Origin: Candidatus Krumholzibacteriia bacterium
GTDB lineage: Bacteria > Krumholzibacteriota > Krumholzibacteriia > JAJRXK01
Length of the DNA: 64,000 nucleotides
Reading direction: 5' to 3'
NCBI GenBank assembly: GCA_041484665.1
Contig: JBGPIA010000018.1
Location: 1-64,000, forward strand
The number at the start of each line of letters is the position of its first letter. Within the stretch, counting starts at the first letter, position 1. The notes beneath the pieces are model-generated. The model had not been told where the DNA came from. It worked only from the letters and a program-made list of their open reading frames with translations, and searched no databases. A program made the translations under genes and the position numbers. This document shows positions 51,182 to 62,519 of this stretch, piece after piece.

Positions 51182-52588
51182 ATGCGCTTCCCGCTGACGT
51201 TTCCAACGATGCCCCGCACCACCGAGAGCGCGTTCGTCGGCACCGAGTCGCGCGTCCTCCCCCAGACAGGGACCCCCCGGGCGCGGGAGCGCGCGGGGCT
51301 TGGCCTGCTGACGGTTGCGTGCCTGCTCTTTGGCCTGGCGCCAATGAGCCGTGCGCAGTGCGTCGGCCTGAGCATCGACGCCAGCCGCTGGTGCTCACCG
51401 TTGGACATTAACTTCTATTGGGCAGAGGGACTGAATGCCTGCGGGACATCCACGCAGTGCACGGCCTTCCAGGGCGCAATTCGGGCCGCCGTGCTAGAGT
51501 TCAACCTGACCGCGGTCAGCGAGCTGACCGCCCCGATCTTCCTCCTGGAGGCGGGGCCGATCGGGCCCAGCGATCCGCAGCCGGCCAGGGGTATCGTGTT
51601 CGCACTCCTGGCGGCGACGCCGCTCAGCTGCGCTGACACCACCGCCACGACGCAGGAAATGATCGGCGCAACACACACGTTCTACGCCGAGCAGACGGGA
51701 TCGCCGCTGTTGGCAATCGGCGGCGCCAACGTAGGATTCAATGCATCGGTCCCGTGGGGGAACAATCAGGCGGGCCGGTTCGACCGCAAGACAGCCGCGC
51801 TCCACGAGCTCTTGCACGCCTTGGGTGTGGGGCACGCCTCCGGGGATTGCTTGATGGCCACCACCGTCTCCTGCGGCCAGACGCACGACCTCGATGGCGA
51901 CGCCCTGCTCGCGCTCCAGTGCCTGTACGGCGACCCGAACGGCGGGTGCTTCCCGATGATCGGGATCTTCATCGAGGCCAGCGTGGACGGTGCCGTCACG
52001 ACCTACTTCGGTCAGTGCGATTGCTCCGGCGGAGGTTGCATGCCCAAAGTGGCGCATGCTTCCAGCCCCGCCGCTTTCGATTACGAATTCGCCGTGAGCG
52101 AGTCGGGTGGGCCGTACACCGTTTTCGCGCTTTTGCAGGAGAGCAATTTGCTGGATCACCGGTATACCCATCAATTCACACAGGCGTACTCGTCGGCGCT
52201 GATCCGCCTGCGCGTCCTCAGTGGCGCCGATGTCGTGGACGAGGCCTTCGCGCGGACCCCAATCGCCATCCAGCCCACGTCCACTGCAGGCCCTCCGGCC
52301 TTGCAGCCGCAGCAGCCGCTGCGGGTGCTGACTGCCCCCAACCCCTTCACGGGCCAGACGGCGATCTCCTTCAAGCTTGCCGTGGAGCAGAGTGTCGAAC
52401 TGGCAGTGTACGACGTGGCCGGGCGCCGCGTGGCCACGTTGCACGACGGCTTGCTGGGGGCCGGCGAGCACCGGATCGTCTGGGACGGCCGGACCTCGGC
52501 GGGCGGCCCCGCGGCGAGCGGGATCTACCACTGCGTCGTGCGGGTGGCCGGGGTCATCGCCAGCAGCACGCTGGCAAAGGTGCGCTGA
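51182..52588 (+). CDS. Matrixin/metzincin-like zinc metalloprotease with C-terminal FlgD-Ig/T9SS-like domain
   Basis: HELLHALGVGH (HExxHxxGxxH), Met-turn CLM, LQCLYG; tail APNPF..YDVAGRRV..WDGR..SGIY; start may be 51209. Confidence 0.85.
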   Translation: MRFPLTFPTMPRTTESAFVGTESRVLPQTGTPRARERAGLGLLTVACLLFGLAPMSRAQCVGLSIDASRWCSPLDINFYWAEGLNACGTSTQCTAFQGAIRAAVLEFNLTAVSELTAPIFLLEAGPIGPSDPQPARGIVFALLAATPLSCADTTATTQEMIGATHTFYAEQTGSPLLAIGGANVGFNASVPWGNNQAGRFDRKTAALHELLHALGVGHASGDCLMATTVSCGQTHDLDGDALLALQCLYGDPNGGCFPMIGIFIEASVDGAVTTYFGQCDCSGGGCMPKVAHASSPAAFDYEFAVSESGGPYTVFALLQESNLLDHRYTHQFTQAYSSALIRLRVLSGADVVDEAFARTPIAIQPTSTAGPPALQPQQPLRVLTAPNPFTGQTAISFKLAVEQSVELAVYDVAGRRVATLHDGLLGAGEHRIVWDGRTSAGGPAASGIYHCVVRVAGVIASSTLAKVR

Positions 52589-52624: not shown

Positions 52625-53116
52625 TCAGGCGAGCCGCTTCTCCAGGCACAGGACAGGCGCCGGTCGGAAGCCCTCGCTGCCCAGGAAGCCGATCAGGTCC
52701 AAGAGCTGCCAGTCCACCTGGGTCTGGACCACCTCGATGCCCACGGCCCGGAGATTCATCTCGAGCTGGCGCAGCATGGCCTTGCCCACGTGTCGGCCGC
52801 GCAGCTCGGGCTCCACGCCGATCGTGTCGATGATCGCCGTGGGCTCGGGCAGGCCGAACTCGCCGTAGTACAAACGGCCCAGCAAGAACCCGGCGAACGT
52901 CCCAGCGCTCTCGGCGGCGAGCGAGACGCGGATCCCCGACTCGCGGGTCGCCTCGTCGATCTTGCGGCGGAAGTACTCATGGCGCGGCCGGCCGCTCAGG
53001 CGCGCGTCGATGCGCACGACCGCATCGAGATCGCGGGGATCCAGCTCGCGCACGAGCACGTGCTCCAGCCCGGTCAGCCCGGGCTCACGGAAGAGGTCGT
53101 CGGCATCGGAAGCCAT
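52625..53116 (-). CDS. GNAT-family acetyltransferase
   Basis: IDTIGVEPELRGRHVGKAML; GAGG RBS. Confidence 0.85.
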   Translation of the reverse strand: MASDADDLFREPGLTGLEHVLVRELDPRDLDAVVRIDARLSGRPRHEYFRRKIDEATRESGIRVSLAAESAGTFAGFLLGRLYYGEFGLPEPTAIIDTIGVEPELRGRHVGKAMLRQLEMNLRAVGIEVVQTQVDWQLLDLIGFLGSEGFRPAPVLCLEKRLA

Positions 53117-53309
53117 GGGTCACCTCGGTGGGTTGCTCCAGCGCCAACGATGTGACGCCGCTCGGCACGCCGCAACGTCGGTTGCGGCATGGCTCTGGGA
53201 GCGGGCTGCCGTGGCGGGAGCGGGCAGAGCGGACGGGACAGGGCGCCCGTGATCGCCCTCAACGTGGGCCATCCGATCTCGAACCGGTGGAGGAGCGCAA
53301 TGGGGATCC

Positions 53310-53661
53310 CGCGTTCATGCGTGATCCGGTCCCAGCCGGCGCCGCGCTTGTCACAAGCGTGGCCGCGGGCGCGGTCGACGAGAATCCGGCGCATGAGGCG
53401 CGCCGCGATGGCAAAGAAGTGCGAACGGTCCTGCCACTCAATGCGCGTCTGGTCCACCAGGCGCAGATAGGCCTCGTGGACCAGAGCGGTGGGCTGAAGC
53501 GTGTGGTCGCTGCGCTCGGATCGCATCAAACGCGACGCGATCTGGTGTAGTTCCTGGTAGACGGCCGCAATCAGTTCCTCGCGCGCGGCGTCGGCCGACT
53601 GCGGGGACGCTCTGAGCTGCTGGAGCAGTACCGTGATGTCCGGGCGCGAGGCATCTGCCAA
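53310..53661 (-). pseudogene. ECF-type sigma factor (kinase-associated type), C-terminally truncated
   Basis: VYQELHQIA..ERSDHTLQPTALVHEAYLRL..HFFAIAARLMRRILVDRAR..KRG; region 4 absent. Confidence 0.8.
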
Positions 53662-53763: not shown

Positions 53764-56519
53764 CTACTTGATTAGAGCCACGCGGATGTGATCGTTCCCG
53801 GTCTCGCTGTGCATCTGCACGAGATACACCCCGCTCGACACCGGGTGATCCTCACCGTCACGGCCGTCCCATTCCGCCGCCCCTCGGCCGGCCGTGTGCG
53901 ACCCGAGATCCATCTCCCGGATCAGCCGCCCCGCGAGGTCGTAAATCCCCAGGGTGATCCGTCCGGCCCTCGCGAGCTGGTACTCCAACCGGGTCGATGG
54001 ATTGAACGGATTTGGAACCGCGCTGATAAGATGGGATCGACCGAGGACGCTTCGGACCACCTCCACCACGACTTCCGGTGAACTGAGCTGTACCCGAAGG
54101 ATCTGCCCCACCAACCGGTAGCGGAACCGTCCCCCCGTGAGAGCATCCGCGTCCAGCCACGAGCCGGCCGCAGCGGTCTGGGCGCCGACCCAGTTCGCCA
54201 CCGCCAACTCCTGCCCTCGCGCATCACCGCGCAGGATGGTCAGTCGATCGAGGGACTTCGCACCGTGGATGTCCCACTTCAGCCGCACGCCCTCGACCGT
54301 CAGCTCGGCCTCCAAATTCGCAGCGAGCGCCGGCACCGGAAAGTCCTGAGCGGAGATCGCAGCGATGCCGCGCGCGGGAGTCTCACCCATCCCAGAGAAA
54401 TAGCCCCCCGCGTACACCGTCGTCGGGCTCACGGCAAAACTGGTGACGAGGTCGTTCGAATTCGGGTCCCAGCCTGTCGCCAGGCCGGTCGCCGCATCCA
54501 GGGCGGCGATCCGGTTGCGTGGCTGCCCGCCGATGTGGATGAAGAACCCCCCCGCATAGATCATCGATCCGCTCACCGCCAGGGCGTCGATCGAACCGAA
54601 TCCCGCATCCGGGTCCCAGCCTGTCGCCAGGCCGGTCGCCGCATCCAGGGCGGCGATGCTATTCGTGACTGCCCACCGACGTCGAAGAAGAACCCACCGA
54701 CGTAGACCGTCGTCCCGCTCAACGCGATTGCATTGATCGAGCCGCCCGCATCCGGGTCCCAGATCGTCGCCAGGCCGGTCGCCGCATCGAGTGCCGCCAG
54801 CCCGCCGCGCGACTGCCCGCCGATGCTCGTGAAGTCCCCGGCGGCGTACACCGTCGCCCCGCTCACCGCCAGGACGCGGATGATGCTGTAAAGACCTGGG
54901 CTCGCATCCCAACCGGTCGCCAGCCCCGTCGCCGCGTCCAGTGCGGCAACGCCGACGCGCGCCTGGCCACCGATACTGGAGAAGTCCCCGCTCGCGTAGA
55001 TGATCGTCCCGCTGGTCGCCAAGGCGTGGACCCAGGTCGCAAACCCACCGCTCGGATTCGGATCCCAAGCGGTAGCATTCCCCGTGGTGCAATCGAGCGC
55101 GGCGAGGCCAGAGCGGGGCTGCCCACCGATGCTGGTGAACAGCCCGCCCGCGTATACGGTCGCGCCATCGACGGCGATCGCGGAGACCGCGCCGTTCGCG
55201 TCGGGATTCCAACTATCCAGAGCGCCGGTCGTGGCGTTGAGTGCGGCAATACCGTTGCGCACCTGACCGCCCACACTCGACAGGTCGCCACCAGTAACGA
55301 CGGTTGGGCCATCGATCGCCAGGACGGAGACTCCACCGAACGAGTACGGGTCCCAGCTCGTCGCAAGGCCGGTTGTCGCGTCGATTGCGGCGAGATTGTT
55401 GCGCGGTTGGCCACCCATCCCGGTGAAGTACCCACCCGCGTAGACGGTCGACCCGCCCACGGCCAGCGCGTTGACACCGCCGAAGTACGAGACCGTATTG
55501 GGGTCCCAGCTCGTCGCCGCGCCCGTGGTCGCATCCAGCGCTGCGATCTGGCTGCGTGGTTGGCCACCGATCGTGGAGAACTGACCCCCGGCATACACGG
55601 TCGACCCACTCATCGCGAGGGCCAGGACCCGGTTGTCCGGACTCGGGTCGAAGCTCGTCGCGAGTCCCGTCGTTGCATCGACCGCGGCGAGACTGAAGCG
55701 GGTCTGTCCGCCGGCGGCGTAGAAGCTCCCTCCCATGTAGACGGTCGGCCCGTCCAATGCCAGCGCATAGACGCCGTCGTAACCGCCCAGCTGCGCATCC
55801 CAGCTGGTCGGCATGCCGGTCGTGGCATCGAGAGCGGCGATCAGGGTGCGGGCGTTACCGCCGACGTCGGAGAAGGCTCCGCCCGCGTACACCGTAGTTC
55901 CGCTCACGGCCAGAGCATACACCGCAGAGTTGGGCTGCGGGTTCCAACTCGTCGCCAAGCCCGTGCTCGCATCGAGCGCAGCGAGGTACGCGCGAGCCTG
56001 GCCGCCAGCCTGACTGAAATACCCGCCCGCGTAGACGGTCGTTCCGCTCACCGCCACGGCGAGCACGTAGCTGTCTGTCCCCGGGTTCCACGCATCGAGG
56101 GAGTGATCGGCGAGGATGTGCGCGAGGTTGTTTCTCGGCAACCCGCCCACACCGGTGAAGAACCCGCCCACGTACCAACCGCCCGCGCCGTCGGAGGCCA
56201 CCGCGCGCACCGAGCCATTCACTTTGGGCCAGCCGGGAAGGACGCCTCCGCTGGTGGCATGGATCGGCACGAAGTTGCCGGTCTGCGGCCCCACGTGGGT
56301 GAAGGGCCCGCCGATGTAGAGCGTGTTCCCCGACAGAGTGGTGACCGTCACGATACCATCCGTGACAGAGAAGTCCGGATCCACCTCCTGCGCTCGCACG
56401 GAGACGGTCGCCACCATCAGCAGCGCGAGGAATGCCGTGCCGGTGGTGGCGGAATGGGAACGGGCGGGCAACGCGGTGCAACGCGTCAACTCCGCAAAAT
56501 GGCGTGCACAAGACCACAT
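53764..56519 (-). CDS. Secreted beta-propeller repeat protein with C-terminal FlgD-Ig/T9SS-like domain; one frameshift near 54662
   Basis: About 12 repeats ALAVSGxTVYAGGxF..GGQxR..LAALDAxTG...WxP; adding one A in CGAATAGC joins the two ORFs; tail VPNPFNPST..YDLAGRLI..WDGRD..SGVY. Confidence 0.8.
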
Positions 56520-56862
56520 GAGTTGGGACCTCCAGCGAGTTGCAGAGCCCACCTGCTTCCGGGTCGGTGGATGGGCGCCATCCGGCCGACCGCGACAGTA
56601 CACAATTTTGGGCCCGGCGTCTTCAAGCTGCCGACTGCTTCCGTTTCGTAACCGTGAGTACCTCGCCCGCGTTCGGTACCGCCGCGTGTCGTGGTTGGAA
56701 ACCTCCCTCAGCCACGTCTGGAAAACCACCGAGTCCGCGGCCCAAGCTCGCGAGTGGCACGACGGGATCACACCGAGTCGAATCACGTTTGCGCGGCGGA
56801 TTGCGTGTACAATGACATGGAAACTCCGGCGGTGCTTCAACGGTCCCGACGATGGAGGCGCG

Positions 56863-58294
56863 ATGAAGGCGCTCTGCGGTTTGGCCCTCTGTGGGGCGTT
56901 GCTCGTGGGTCCTTCTCTGGCCCCCGCCGCTGCGATCCAGGGTGTCGACACAGGTACCGCAGGCTTCGTCGGCATGTCGGAGTACGGCCCTCTCGATCAG
57001 CCGGTGTTCGTGGGGAGTTTCGCGGAATTCCTGGCGGCCTTCGGCAGTTCGACTGCCGGACTCCCCCACCCCTACCTTGCCTCGTCGGTCGCCGCCTTCT
57101 TCGCGAACGGCGGGCAGCGCCTCTACGTGGTGCGCGTGGCCGGCGGCGACGATGCCTCTTTCATCGGCGTAGACGGTGGGGCGCTCGGTCTGCGGACCGG
57201 ACTGCAAGCGCTTCGAGACGTCGATGAGGTCAGCGTGGTCGCTATCCCGGGGGCGGTCTCCGGGGCCGGTCCAAGCCGCCATGATCTCGCAGTGCGAGGC
57301 CATGCGCGATCGTATGGCGGTGCTCGACCCGGCCACCGCGGTCGACATCGATGGGGTCCTGCAGCAGCGTGCAAGCCTGACCTCCACGCTGGGGCACGCT
57401 GCTCTCTACTTCCCCTGGATCCAGGCCGCGCCGATGGGTGTCTCGCTGCTGTTGCCGCCCAGCGGCTTTGTCGCCGGCGCGTACGCGCGCACGGCCCCCC
57501 CACAGTCCCCGGCTGGCAACGTGGTGACGGCCACAGGCGTGAGCGTCAATCTCACGACCCAGCAGCTGGACACGCTCAATCTGGCGGGGGTCGACGCCAT
57601 CCGGACCTTTGTCGGACTCGGGGTCCAGATCTGGGGCGTACGCACCATCTCGAGCGACAGCGACTGGAGATACGTCTTGGTCCGGCGTATGGGTCTGTTT
57701 CTCGAGGAGTCCATCTACGAGGGAACGCAGTGGGCGGTGCTCGAGCCGAACGACGCGATCCTGTGGTCGAGCCTACAACAGTGCGTGGAGAGTTTCATGT
57801 ACGGGCTCTTCCAGGGTGGCTGGTTCCAGGGCACGACGCCGCAGCAAACGTTCTTCGTCCGGGTGGACCAGACGACCATGACCCAGCAAGACATCGACGA
57901 GGGGCGCACGATCATTGTGGTGGGCTTCGCGCCGGTGCGACCTGGCGAGTTCGTCATCCTCCAGATCGTGCAGCAGCGGAACTCCAGCACGGGCGCCCCC
58001 CCGAGCGCCCCGCAGTCCTACAGCCTGTATCCAGCGGCCCCCAATCCGTTCAATCCGAGCACGTCCATCCGGTTCGACCTTTCCGAGGCTGGGCGTGTCG
58101 ATCTTCGGATCTACGACGTTGCCGGACGCCTGCTCGCAACGCTGCAGCGCAGCGATCGCATGGAGGCCGGAGCTCATCGGGTGGTCTGGGATGGCCGCGA
58201 TGGCGAGGGCGCACCGGTGGCTTCGGGCGTGTACCTCTATCGGCTCGACGCCGGCCCCTTCGCAGAGACGCGCCGGATGACGCTTCTAAAATGA
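56863..58294 (+). CDS. Contractile tail-sheath protein with N-terminal signal peptide and C-terminal FlgD-Ig/T9SS-like domain; one frameshift near 57262-57265
   Basis: GGAGG RBS; MKALCGLALCGALLVGPSLAPAAA; sheath motifs IQGVDTGTAGFVG..GP..SFAEF..FFANGG..YVVRV, AALYFPW, PPSGFVAG, WGVRT..WRYVLVRR..EESI..GTQWAVLEPND, VGFAPVRPGEFV; tail PNPFNPST..YDVAGRL..WDGRD..SGVYLYRL. Confidence 0.85.
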
Positions 58295-58509
58295 AGGAGT
58301 TCGCTGTCCCTACCGGACCGCCGGTCGGAGAGTCTGCGGCAGGCGTGATGCCGGCCACACCCGGCCGTACGCATGGGGAATCTCCGCGGCGATCAGACAT
58401 GGGGCTGGCCGCGGGTTTCCAACGGTGGCCTCAGCCGGTCGCTTCGGTCAATTGCTTCCGACCACGCCCGCAAGGCGATCGTTCCCGACGATCGCTGCGG
58501 GCGATGGGC

Positions 58510-59052
58510 TCACCAGCGTGCAGCCTTCTTGCGCGACCGCGGCCGCGCCGGCGCTAACTTGGGCGGGTTTGGGGTCGGACGCCTCGGCCGCTGTTTGGCG
58601 GACACCGACTTGATCACGGTATAGCCCTTCCCGCTGGCAAGCAGCGGGGTCTTGCCCTGCGCAATGGCCGCGCGAAGCAGAGACGCGACCGCCGGCTCGT
58701 CGAGCTGGGCGATGCTCTCGAGCCGGATGAAGCGCCCCTGGTTGCCGCTTCCCTCCAGCAGCTTGTGGGGATCGGGGAGCTTGGCCCCCTGCATGAAGTA
58801 GAGACTGATCCCCCTGGCGAAGACGGCCAGCGAGACGAAGGCCTCGGATGTCCGCTCGTTGGGCCCAAAGCCAATGGCGAGGGCGTTATAGTTGTCGTAG
58901 ACCAGCTCGACTGCGGTCGGGAATCGTCTGCGCAAGACCGCGCGCGCCGAGCGCACCAGCCTCCCGATGGACGGGTCGAATTTGGCGATGAACCCTGCCA
59001 GCTGCTTGGCTGGCGACTCCGGCCGATCCGACTTGGGTGATTTTTGCGTCAT
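58510..59052 (-). CDS. DUF1801-like protein
   Basis: ELVYDNYNALAIGF..LYFMQGAKLPDPHKLLEGSG..RFIRL. Confidence 0.75.
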   Translation of the reverse strand: MTQKSPKSDRPESPAKQLAGFIAKFDPSIGRLVRSARAVLRRRFPTAVELVYDNYNALAIGFGPNERTSEAFVSLAVFARGISLYFMQGAKLPDPHKLLEGSGNQGRFIRLESIAQLDEPAVASLLRAAIAQGKTPLLASGKGYTVIKSVSAKQRPRRPTPNPPKLAPARPRSRKKAARW

Positions 59053-60297: not shown

Positions 60298-60628
60298 GGG
60301 CTTGTCCGAGGATGTGTTGATGGGAGCCGTTGACGGCGCATGAAAAAAGGGGTTCACCCTCCGGTTGTTGCACAAGCCGAGAGGAGGAACCCCCATGGAC
60401 GGGCAAAGGCGACTCGTGGTCACCCTCGCCACTACGATCACGATACCCCCCGGCGATCTCGATTTCAACTCGCTCATCGCAGCATTCCGGCAGTTCGGCG
60501 AGTTGAGCATCGGCCGGCTCTTCGAGGTGACCCTGGGCGCCTTCGAGCAGCGGCTGGGCGAGGAGTTCATCGCCTCGCAGCCCGGCCGCTTTGTCTGGTT
60601 TGGTCGCCCGGGGAGCAAGCCGAAGGAG
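60298..60628 (+). mobile_element. Possible IS left end with transposase N-terminal fragment (ATG 60395)
   Basis: Locally AT-richer leader starting GGGCTTGTC, hairpin GGGGTTC..GAACCCC, strong GAGGAGG RBS; the 78-aa ORF start is unrelated to the kinase it runs into. Confidence 0.35.
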
Positions 60629-62519
60629 TGGGCGCTGGGGGTCCTGCTGTACGAGCTGCTGGCGGGGCGGCGTCCGTTCACGCTGGCGGGTCGTTCCCGC
60701 AGCGAGATCGATCGCATCGTCCAGCATGAGGAGGCTGTTCTGCCCAGCGCGGTTGCTTGTACGCCGGAGGTCGCGCGCGTGCTGCGCGGCGACCTCGACC
60801 GTATCGTGCAGAAGGCGCTCCGCAAGGAGCCCGAACGCCGCTACGGCTCGGCGGACGACCTGGCGGAGGACGTCGACCGCTGGTTGGGGGGCCTGCCGGT
60901 GCACGCGACGCCCGACTCATTCCGGTACCGTTTGCACAAGTTCGTGCGCCGTAATCGTGCGGACCTGGCGGTCGCGGCAACTCTGTCGGTGTTGATCGTG
61001 GCATTCGCTGCAACGTCTGCATGGCAGGCGCGCCGCGTCGCGCACGAGCGCGACAACGCAGTGGCTGAGCGCCAGGACGCGGAGGCCGCCATTGCCATGC
61101 TCGTGGACGTGTTCCGTGTCGCCGACCCGCAGACGACCCCCGGTGGCGATACGCTTCGTGTCAAGGATCTGGTGCGGATCGCCGAATCCAGGATCGAGTC
61201 GACGCGCGACCATCCCCGCATCGAGGCCAAGCTCTGGCAGACGATGGCAGCGATCCGCGGTGCGCGCAGCCACTACGACGAGCAGCGCCATGCTCTGGAT
61301 CGTGCGCTCGCCGATGCCGAGCGAGCGGGACTGACCGACGAGCTGCTGAGCCTCTCGCACGAGCGGGGAAGGCTCCTCTTGAGGCTGGACGGGCCACGCG
61401 CGGTGGAGCCGCTGTTCCGCGAATCGCTGGCGCGCCACGAGGCCCGATTTCGACCCAACGTCGCGGACGTTGCCATCGCGTGCCAGGACCTCTCGATCGT
61501 CGTTGAGGACGAGGCAGAACGCGAGCGTCTGCTCGAACGGGCGCTGCAGATTCGCCGCTCTCTAATGGCCGGCGGTGCGGACGCCGACTCGGTGGGATTC
61601 GCAGGGCTGCTCAACGCGCTGGGCTCGTTCCATTGGGCCCGGGGCGAGTGGAGTGCCGCGCAGGCCAACTTTGCAGAGGGCCTGGCAATCCTGGGAAGGC
61701 CGCTTCCGCGGGACCACCCCAACGTCCTCTCCATGCGCTCCAACCTGGCGGTCTCGCTCCAGGTGACGGGAAGATTTGCCGAGGCGGAGCGGATGCACCG
61801 CGCTCTCCTCGAATCGCGCCGGCGCATTCTGGGAGAGGATTCGGAATCGGTCGCGGGAAGCCTGATGAACATCGGCGTGTCCCTCGTGAACGAGGGGCCA
61901 CTCGACGAGGGGGTGGAGTCGCTGCGGAAGTCCTTCGCCCTGGCCCAGAAGATCTATGGTCCCCAGCACACCGAGACGCTGGCGATTGGCCGGGATCTAG
62001 GGCTCGCGCTGGTGCGCTCGGGCCGCGCGCAGGAGGGCCTTGCGCTCCTGGATCGCGCCCGCGACGCTGCGGCGGCAGGAGGGTCCGACCTCCGCGTCCG
62101 TGGCGGACGAGGACGTCAGCCGTGCCGGCGCCGAGCTCGCGATCGGGCGCCACGTGTCCCTCGATTCATTGCGGACGTACGTGGCCCACATCCGCACGCG
62201 GAGTCCCGACAAATCCGCGCAACTCGCGCATGCCCTCTCCGTCCTTTAGGTGGCCGCGCTGGCGTCCCCCCAGGAGGCCCAAGCCGCCGAGGCCGAGGAC
62301 ACCCTCAGCGAGGCCGTCCAACTCCTGCGCAAGTCGGAGACCAACCAGCATCCCAATTCTGCATTCGTCCGCTGCGCGCTGCACGTCGCGCGGGGGGCCG
62401 CGCGACAGCCGATCGATCGCGCGGAGCTGGCGGAAGTGCTGCATGCGTGTGAAGGCTGGGGGCTGGCGGACCCCTCCATCGTACGCCGCGCACGGGAGCT
62501 GCTGACCGCCGCCCGCTGA
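60629..62519 (+). pseudogene. Ser/Thr kinase-TPR protein lacking the kinase N-terminal part; frameshift near 62060 and in-frame TAG at 62247
   Basis: Begins at WALGVLLYELLAGRRPF (subdomain IX); LRGDLD..KAL.KEPERRY; TM segment; TPR repeats. Confidence 0.8.

Follow-up and report, generated by a model that had tools for sequence, protein, structure and literature searches.

A tail-sheath fold probably domesticated for export: a family of sheath proteins with signal peptides and exchangeable sorting tails

We describe a conserved family of sheath proteins, apparently new to the literature, that are equipped for export and differ in their exchangeable sorting tails. One broken copy lies in a 64,000-nucleotide stretch (here called the window) of a Candidatus Krumholzibacteriia genome (G000; its contigs C1, C2, C3, C16 and C28 are cited below). 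To our knowledge, every sheath protein known so far belongs to a machine that is assembled around a tube within the cytoplasm. The sequences make it very probable that a sheath protein has here been domesticated and exported. This had been proposed for the window gene in the initial annotation; the tails, the relatives, the fold and a host with SprA, PorV and PorU all support the proposal, but the window copy itself is frameshifted.

The window gene and its broken reading frame

The gene occupies 56863–58294 of the forward strand, from an ATG at 56863 to a stop at 58292–58294, 476 codons in total, and the sequence GGAGG ahead of it (56853–56857) reads as a ribosome-binding site. The first 24 residues (56863–56934) combine a basic residue with a hydrophobic core and an end rich in Ala and are predicted, by eye and by hydropathy, to be a Sec-type signal peptide, which replaces the N-terminal mesh arm of the sheath. 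The N-terminal part of the sheath domain follows (56935–57261), beginning with the IxGV linker known from eCIS sheaths; it matches PF22671 (Gp18_domIII_N) weakly, at E 2e-4 and below the Pfam cut-off, and aligns with Streptomyces coelicolor Cis2 from residue 20. The rest of the sheath domain (57269–57979) comprises a subtilisin-like part, the handshake domain and the C-terminal arm. A linker with a Thr/Gly-type site, similar to a site in homologues and at which PorU-like cleavage would be expected (57980–58030), leads to a FlgD-Ig or T9SS type A-like C-terminal sorting domain with the stop codon (58031–58294), which lies above cut-off for both PF13860 and TIGR04183 (T9SS type A; 24.7 bits against an NCBIfam cut-off of 23). 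Pfam, TIGR04183 and the sequence thus agree on the three-part build of signal peptide, sheath and sorting tail read initially. The search with phage-sheath models that had been suggested along with it placed PF04984 and PF17482 (Phage_sheath_1 and Phage_sheath_1C) above cut-off on the piece behind the frameshift, together with FlgD_ig.

The tail profile found the same tail on nine genes of the window, the sheath gene and the eight others counted initially, and on 203 of the 4058 genes that a simple gene caller predicted in G000. Another tail-bearing protein in the window (51182–52588, forward strand) is metallopeptidase-like, with a Peptidase_M10 match below cut-off. The sheath gene is the sole PF17482 match in G000, a genome that is 93.65% complete. 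A promoter scan gave 0 sites (shuffled sequences, 0.2).

The reading frame changes at about 57249–57268, where G runs lie at 57249–57253 and 57262–57265 and the gene has one base more than the rest of the family. Contigs of run X1 (54628–58700), run X4 (56768–58700) and run X5 (56677–57551) bridge this place with no difference and no gap; the X2 contig breaks there, without bridging. The assembly may derive from runs X1 and X2; X4 and X5 carry no such mark. The frameshift that the initial annotation had repaired is therefore present, but it is not a sequencing error, as three assemblies bridge it unchanged; these contigs of X1, X4 and X5 rule out a long-read error. A programmed frameshift is unsupported, because the intact homologues are in one frame. 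Since contigs of X1 and X4 also bridge both domain junctions, the fusion is not an assembly chimera, and the earlier concern that the junctions might be artefacts can be dropped. Of 111 columns conserved in the family, the two pieces together retain 105 (members range from 97 to 111, with a median of 108), which indicates that the break is young. Because it is frameshifted in the living population, the window copy is probably not a working gene. It is probably a recent pseudogene in a region with several broken genes. The contigs of these runs thus confirm the lesion that had been taken as a possible mark of a dead chimera, yet other genomes hold the fusion intact.

Around the gene, a beta-propeller repeat protein with the same tail (DUF5122-like; 53764–56519, reverse strand) is frameshifted near 54680, a change likewise bridged unchanged by contigs of three runs; an ECF sigma factor is cut at its C-terminus (53077–53661, reverse strand) and a kinase-TPR gene at its N-terminus (60365–62449, forward strand). 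In another genome of the phylum, G094, a whole ECF/kinase pair directly adjoins the sheath gene (L119:3091-6710).

A family of armless sheaths

The three-part architecture recurs in other genomes, as the search for homologues proposed at the outset revealed. A search with the second piece gave 3005 matches, of which the best 120 were taken, and a search with homologue P0110 gave at least 120 more, overlapping with these; 224 were classed by pattern. Among these matches listed, 108 carry a FlgD-type tail, the piece from the window being one of them; another 15 carry a dockerin-like tail, a label given by eye from GDxNxDG repeats with no Pfam match, and 101 have no tail. A hydropathy rule for signal peptides was passed by 86 of the 108 FlgD-tail homologues, most of the others being cut at the N-terminus. 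Sources, where named, are Ca. Eisenbacteria and Ca. Krumholzibacteriia for the FlgD class and Planctomycetes for the dockerin class. An exhaustive profile search gave further tails: P0337 joins a signal peptide and a sheath to TSP3_bac repeats and a dockerin-like end; P0305, its N-terminus apparently cut, joins a sheath to TSP_3 repeats; and P0304 has a signal peptide, a sheath and a short hydrophobic anchor with a basic end, without a match to any model, which we take to be an IPTL/PEP-CTERM-like membrane anchor. Each of these three architectures rests on one record, since each is a single sequence; P0325 is a partial extra member. Database names of family members are 'phage tail sheath' or 'T9SS type A sorting domain-containing protein'.

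A sheath match occurs in 16 of the 208 genomes available for the host phylum, and in 13 of these 16 the sheath bears the tail (two of nine families, eight genera); in two of the 13 carriers, G122 and G137, the N-terminus of the sheath is cut by a contig end. Matches listed from genome contigs and metagenomes are mostly ordinary eCIS sheaths, with one dockerin-type locus (L187). We found no longer multi-domain exported form among 78 matches of 841–2400 aa (8000 candidates scored); these resemble ordinary sheaths, the majority having the arm motif and, by eye, 0 an export tail. A viral origin of the fusion was discarded, as 57 viral loci whose sheath end is complete (from the best 80 of 276) include 0 with a tail. 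Other fusions seen in the searches were a sheath with a methylated-DNA methyltransferase domain (PF01035) in P0286, P0289 and P0300 (named Sulfurimonas, Thiomicrolovo) and, by eye, a sheath with an AAA ATPase-like part in P0307, P0365 and P0437.

Both arms of a sheath subunit complete the handshake sheets of its neighbours and so form the mesh, according to the available parts of two structural reports (PMC8195476, PMC6088184). The N-terminal arm motif (PGVYxEE) occurs in 76 of 92 compact eCIS sheaths, 0 of 86 full-length FlgD-class proteins and 0 of 15 dockerin-class proteins. The C-terminal arm motif (PAEF...) is kept in 82 of 86, 15 of 15 and, for eCIS sheaths, 91 of 92. The GV[WH]xAP loop is found in 0 of 86 members of the FlgD class, 14 of 15 of the dockerin class and 87 of 92 eCIS sheaths. 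The window copy likewise lacks the arm motif and has a shortened loop, so that the loss of PGVY and the shortening of the RGVWKAPA-type segment, both read from this one gene at first, agree with the motif counts. In alignment with Cis2, the mature chain starts at the linker I21–G25; therefore the whole arm was lost and nothing more.

Comparison of alignment columns revealed 65 that are conserved in both the FlgD class and eCIS sheaths, many of them in the handshake domain, and 45 eCIS-conserved columns lost in the FlgD class (in the arm, the loop and, for 18 of them, the C-terminal handshake region), the eCIS set being tighter (68% mean identity, against 57% in the FlgD class). The FlgD class has gained conservation at another 18 columns, where Gly, Pro, Ala and hydrophobic residues prevail and no catalytic set is evident, and GLxNPYL is a new conserved, surface-like motif of the family. 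Lysine makes up 0.24% of the exported sheath against 5.5% in eCIS sheaths; we do not regard this as a special trait, as other tail-bearing G000 proteins are similarly low (median 0.9%).

The AlphaFold model of an intact homologue, P0002, has a pLDDT of 93.5 (76 sequences), and its best structural match is the S. coelicolor CIS sheath 9gts (Foldseek E 1.5e-30, 37–40% identity), with only sheaths in the listed ranks of the structure search; a search of the ESM Atlas gave no usable match. The sheath fold ascribed to the middle region is thus supported by the predicted model, whose top matches are CIS sheaths. By sequence and by fold, judged for the relatives of the window gene through the P0002 model, the exported protein is a member of the sheath family. 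Like Cis2 (PDB 8bky, 8bl4, 9gtp, 9gts; TM about 0.8 on the target, 37–40% identity) and other eCIS sheaths (PVC, Afp, AlgoCIS), it has the handshake domain and the C-terminal arm (profile E 8.5e-96). Unlike them, it lacks the N-terminal arm, the outer domain 3 and nearby tube or baseplate genes and adds a signal peptide and a sorting tail, with the GV[WH]xAP loop shortened in the FlgD class.

Exported forms are under purifying selection. The dN/dS of the sheath part, a measure proposed in the initial annotation, was 0.23, 0.22 and 0.25 in the three pairs (3/3, Nei–Gojobori), compared with 0.10 for the flanking IleRS. They also form one clade, with SH-aLRT/UFBoot values of 95.8/99 in an IQ-TREE tree of 40 rows without P0305 and 85/63 with it, and with support of 0.94 and 0.986 by FastTree on 91 rows; these trees are subsamples with long branches, rooted on one distant eCIS sheath and with 15 long eCIS sheaths left out. 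Their nearest sequences are compact eCIS sheaths of 370–420 aa, and at the one nearest-sheath locus that we checked (L179) a tube gene lies directly behind. With a single clade, the most likely history is one origin of export, out of an eCIS sheath, followed by exchange of tails.

Genomic setting, probable export route and other tail parts with export signals

Targeted searches for tube, baseplate and spike genes found no match in the window, as had been noted. The absence does not extend to the genome, since G000 has a T6SS cluster on C1 and an exported Hcp on C28. Of the exported-sheath loci with room downstream, 0 of 13 (12 distinct places) have a tube gene by the tube profile; for ordinary sheath loci the figures are 68 of 72 in genomes and 45 of 60 in metagenomes (among matches listed) and 37 of 53 sheath loci from viral contigs (best 80 of 276). 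Neighbours of the exported sheath in ten other genomes differ and, by eye and BLAST, are unrelated to tails; the neighbours shared are those of one same-genus pair and the ECF sigma/kinase pair of G094 and the window.

Elsewhere in the 13 carrier genomes, Baseplate_J occurs in one and a gp19-type tube in four; TssD occurs in G000 alone and an ordinary T6SS Hcp in G094 and G108. Four of the 13 have none of these tubes (gp19-type, TssD or Hcp), only G163 among them being more than 90% complete, and no tube kind is common to all 13. A secreted gp19-type tube was rejected, the tube genes of G094, G109, G113, G107 and G091 having neither signal peptide nor tail. PF06841 and PF19266 had no match in G000, a search without a positive control (PF06841 did match in other genomes). 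The ordinary gp19-type tube genes at L023, L024 and L025 (G094, G113 and G109) are each followed by a similar small gene, with no adjoining sheath match, and by eye the G094 flanks (L142) hold no other tail gene.

The T6SS cluster of G000 (C1:212100-222850, L136) is of Bacteroidota type in a host outside Bacteroidota; it contains TssG, TssF, TssE, VgrG, two TssD, TssC and a ClpV-like gene, with no separate TssB called. A PAAR gene lies at C3:289560-291380, and TssD exceeds its cut-off in 21 of the 208 genomes of the phylum. The exported sheath shares a homologous contractile-sheath fold with the TssC of such systems (PF17541). It differs in its separate locus, its signal peptide and tail and its one-piece eCIS type; indeed, the cluster on C1 has its own TssC, and the exported sheath is on another contig and not of the two-part TssB/TssC kind.

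SprA is present in all 13 carriers of the phylum (13/13). In G000, SprA, PorU and a PorV-family protein exceed their NCBIfam cut-offs (TIGR04189, 499 bits against 200; NF033707, 495 against 420; NF033709, 186 against 90), and porU adjoins porV; the regions C2:447-452 kb (L137), C3:124-131 kb (L138) and C3:74-84 kb (L139) hold the porU–porV pair, SprA and a second PorV-like gene. Models of GldM and GldN had no match in G000 and likewise none in control genomes. Genes beside the second PorV-like gene are, by eye, presumably ExbB/ExbD-like, which hints at another motor for the T9SS-like system. In 58 of 80 homologues, a Thr/Ser-small residue site follows the arm motif at a distance of 11–17 residues. 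T9SS cargo is cleaved by PorU and then anchored at the surface or released, as outlined in the accessible part of PMC10202324. By its architecture, the exported protein is a T9SS-type cargo and, so far as sequence can tell, stands outside any contractile system. With Bacteroidota T9SS type A cargo (TIGR04183, PF18962) it shares the order of signal peptide, passenger and Ig-like tail and a host with SprA, PorU and PorV; unlike that cargo, the passenger is a tail-sheath fold, the host lies outside Bacteroidota and sister proteins have different tails.

We noted a second tail fold with the same build. At C28:11658-12485 of G000 (L143:7659-8486) a signal peptide precedes Hcp (PF05638, 66.6 bits) and the same sorting tail. 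We verified this build in 10 genomes, and about 16 of 208 in the phylum have it in all (L144, L145, L146, L147 and L164–L177 besides L143, with tandem copies in G022); among the remainder, G027 is without an in-frame tail and five are inferred from frame length alone. A single-sequence model of one exported Hcp, P0447, has a pLDDT of 46.9 and was set aside. In our reading the exported sheath and the exported Hcp were recruited in parallel and do not make a fixed pair; a facultative partnership of the two is possible. Amid tail-bearing genes of G000, a phage tail collar domain (PF07484) lies behind a signal-peptide-like N-terminus (C16:11245-11901, L178), seemingly a third phage-tail fold that is exported.

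What the exported sheath may do

Our preferred reading as a whole, which we hold tentatively and at slightly below even confidence, is that the protein is a domesticated, non-contractile exported sheath acting as a structural, self-associating subunit. On a single occasion, a signal peptide would have taken the place of the N-terminal mesh arm in an eCIS sheath gene, and the armless sheath would then have acquired whichever export tail its various host lineages employ. Judging from architecture and gene content, the protein would cross the inner membrane by Sec and fold in the periplasm; the FlgD-Ig tail would lead it through a T9SS-like translocon (SprA, PorV), and PorU would cut just behind the C-terminal arm, leaving the protein anchored at the surface or released. 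Outside, with one link remaining, subunits might chain by exchange of the C-terminal strand into ribbons, rings or a surface coat; a one-link subunit could not be expected to form a contractile two-way mesh around a tube. Contraction is unlikely, because the arm, the tube and the baseplate are missing. The closest parallel is the polysheaths and ribbons of a recombinant phage sheath, FV3 gp053, whose tube-free self-assembly tolerates N-terminal cuts: in the sections of PMC6357053 open to us, the protein minus 25 N-terminal residues still gives polysheaths and minus 29 gives ribbons. Those are laboratory products of a cytoplasmic protein, and the same sections describe no natural exported form. 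As the termini of the phage sheath most likely face the lumen (PMC6357053, same sections), a tail that stays anchored or uncut should lead to open forms more readily than to closed tubes.

Several observations count against the preferred reading. The family has a patchy distribution, at 13 of 208 genomes in the phylum, and the 18 column losses in the handshake region may mean that assembly surfaces have decayed. Nor is retention of the C-terminal strand proof of exchange, because a sheath monomer can fold this strand back on itself, and monomeric back-folded sheaths exist, in the available portion of PMC6088184. Complex prediction for two copies of the mature domain scored 0.24 against a mark of 0.42, which weighs on neither side of the question. 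The main rival is such a monomer: exported, with its C-terminal strand back-folded, and serving as a surface binding module (an adhesin, or a decoy for the tube or tail parts of phages, tailocins or eCIS), which we consider somewhat unlikely. Loss of the arm, the GV[WH]xAP loop and those 18 columns would suit it, as would the conserved GLxNPYL motif and the unrelated tails (dockerin-like, TSP3, membrane anchor), which are typical of single-domain passengers; however, no ligand or partner was identified, and 65 columns, many of them within the handshake domain, have stayed conserved in both classes. A cap role has no obvious target, tails being put together within cells and capped at their ends. 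The idea of a cap or decoy for tails, raised in the initial annotation, thus appears weak, since tails assemble in the cytoplasm whereas the exported sheath leaves it.

A single tail-like tube built outside the cell from exported sheath and exported Hcp appears very unlikely to us. Both are exported in four of the 13 sheath carriers (G000, G022, G023 and G124), against an expectation of 1.0 for the phylum as a whole (p 0.011); in the two families with both proteins, however, the expectation is 2.1 (p 0.12), kin are not independent and G022 and G023 are one genus. Moreover, no exported Hcp is seen in 9 of the 13 sheath carriers and no exported sheath in about 12 of the 16 genomes with exported Hcp, the two genes are never adjacent, and a T6SS-type tube would have to fit an eCIS-type sheath whose mesh arm is gone. 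Equally hard to credit, and if anything more so, is a non-structural activity, for example enzymatic or periplasmic chaperone-like. The 18 newly conserved columns and the same-tail neighbours, most of which are enzymes or adhesins by Pfam, would agree with it, but no catalytic set stands out among the residues gained, and the listed ranks of the structure search hold sheaths only. That the fusions are dead or neutral chimeras of shuffled signal peptides and tails, or assembly artefacts, is extremely improbable. Frameshifts in the window copy and its neighbour and odd ends in a few homologues (P0037, P0056, P0089 and P0096) point that way; against it stand 86 full-length FlgD-class clusters at about 57% mean identity, the dN/dS values, one clade across phyla and junctions bridged by short-read contigs, so that for the family this reading is already largely refuted.

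In the literature, searched mostly in open-access papers and at abstract level, we found no description of an exported sheath or an exported Hcp, and the main text of a survey of sheath evolution (PMC9230969) contains neither 'signal peptide' nor 'secreted'. There is a fair chance that the structural, self-associating sheath proposed here represents a new class of extracellular assembly. The bolder form of this idea, in which several phyla export an armless sheath (and here also Hcp) to build a new extracellular fibre, tube or lattice, with tail removal freeing the arm, is unlikely on present evidence. A Sec-targeted, selected, multi-phylum family would mean that the sheath fold has a second life outside the cell, and the parallel export of Hcp suggests that tail parts have been recruited repeatedly. 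As a natural deletion mutant in which exactly one of two mesh links is gone, the exported sheath is a tool for asking what each arm does; it is also a well-marked cargo for T9SS-like export outside Bacteroidota and a candidate self-assembling surface material. For annotation, its members named 'phage tail sheath' could be miscounted as markers of prophages or eCIS.
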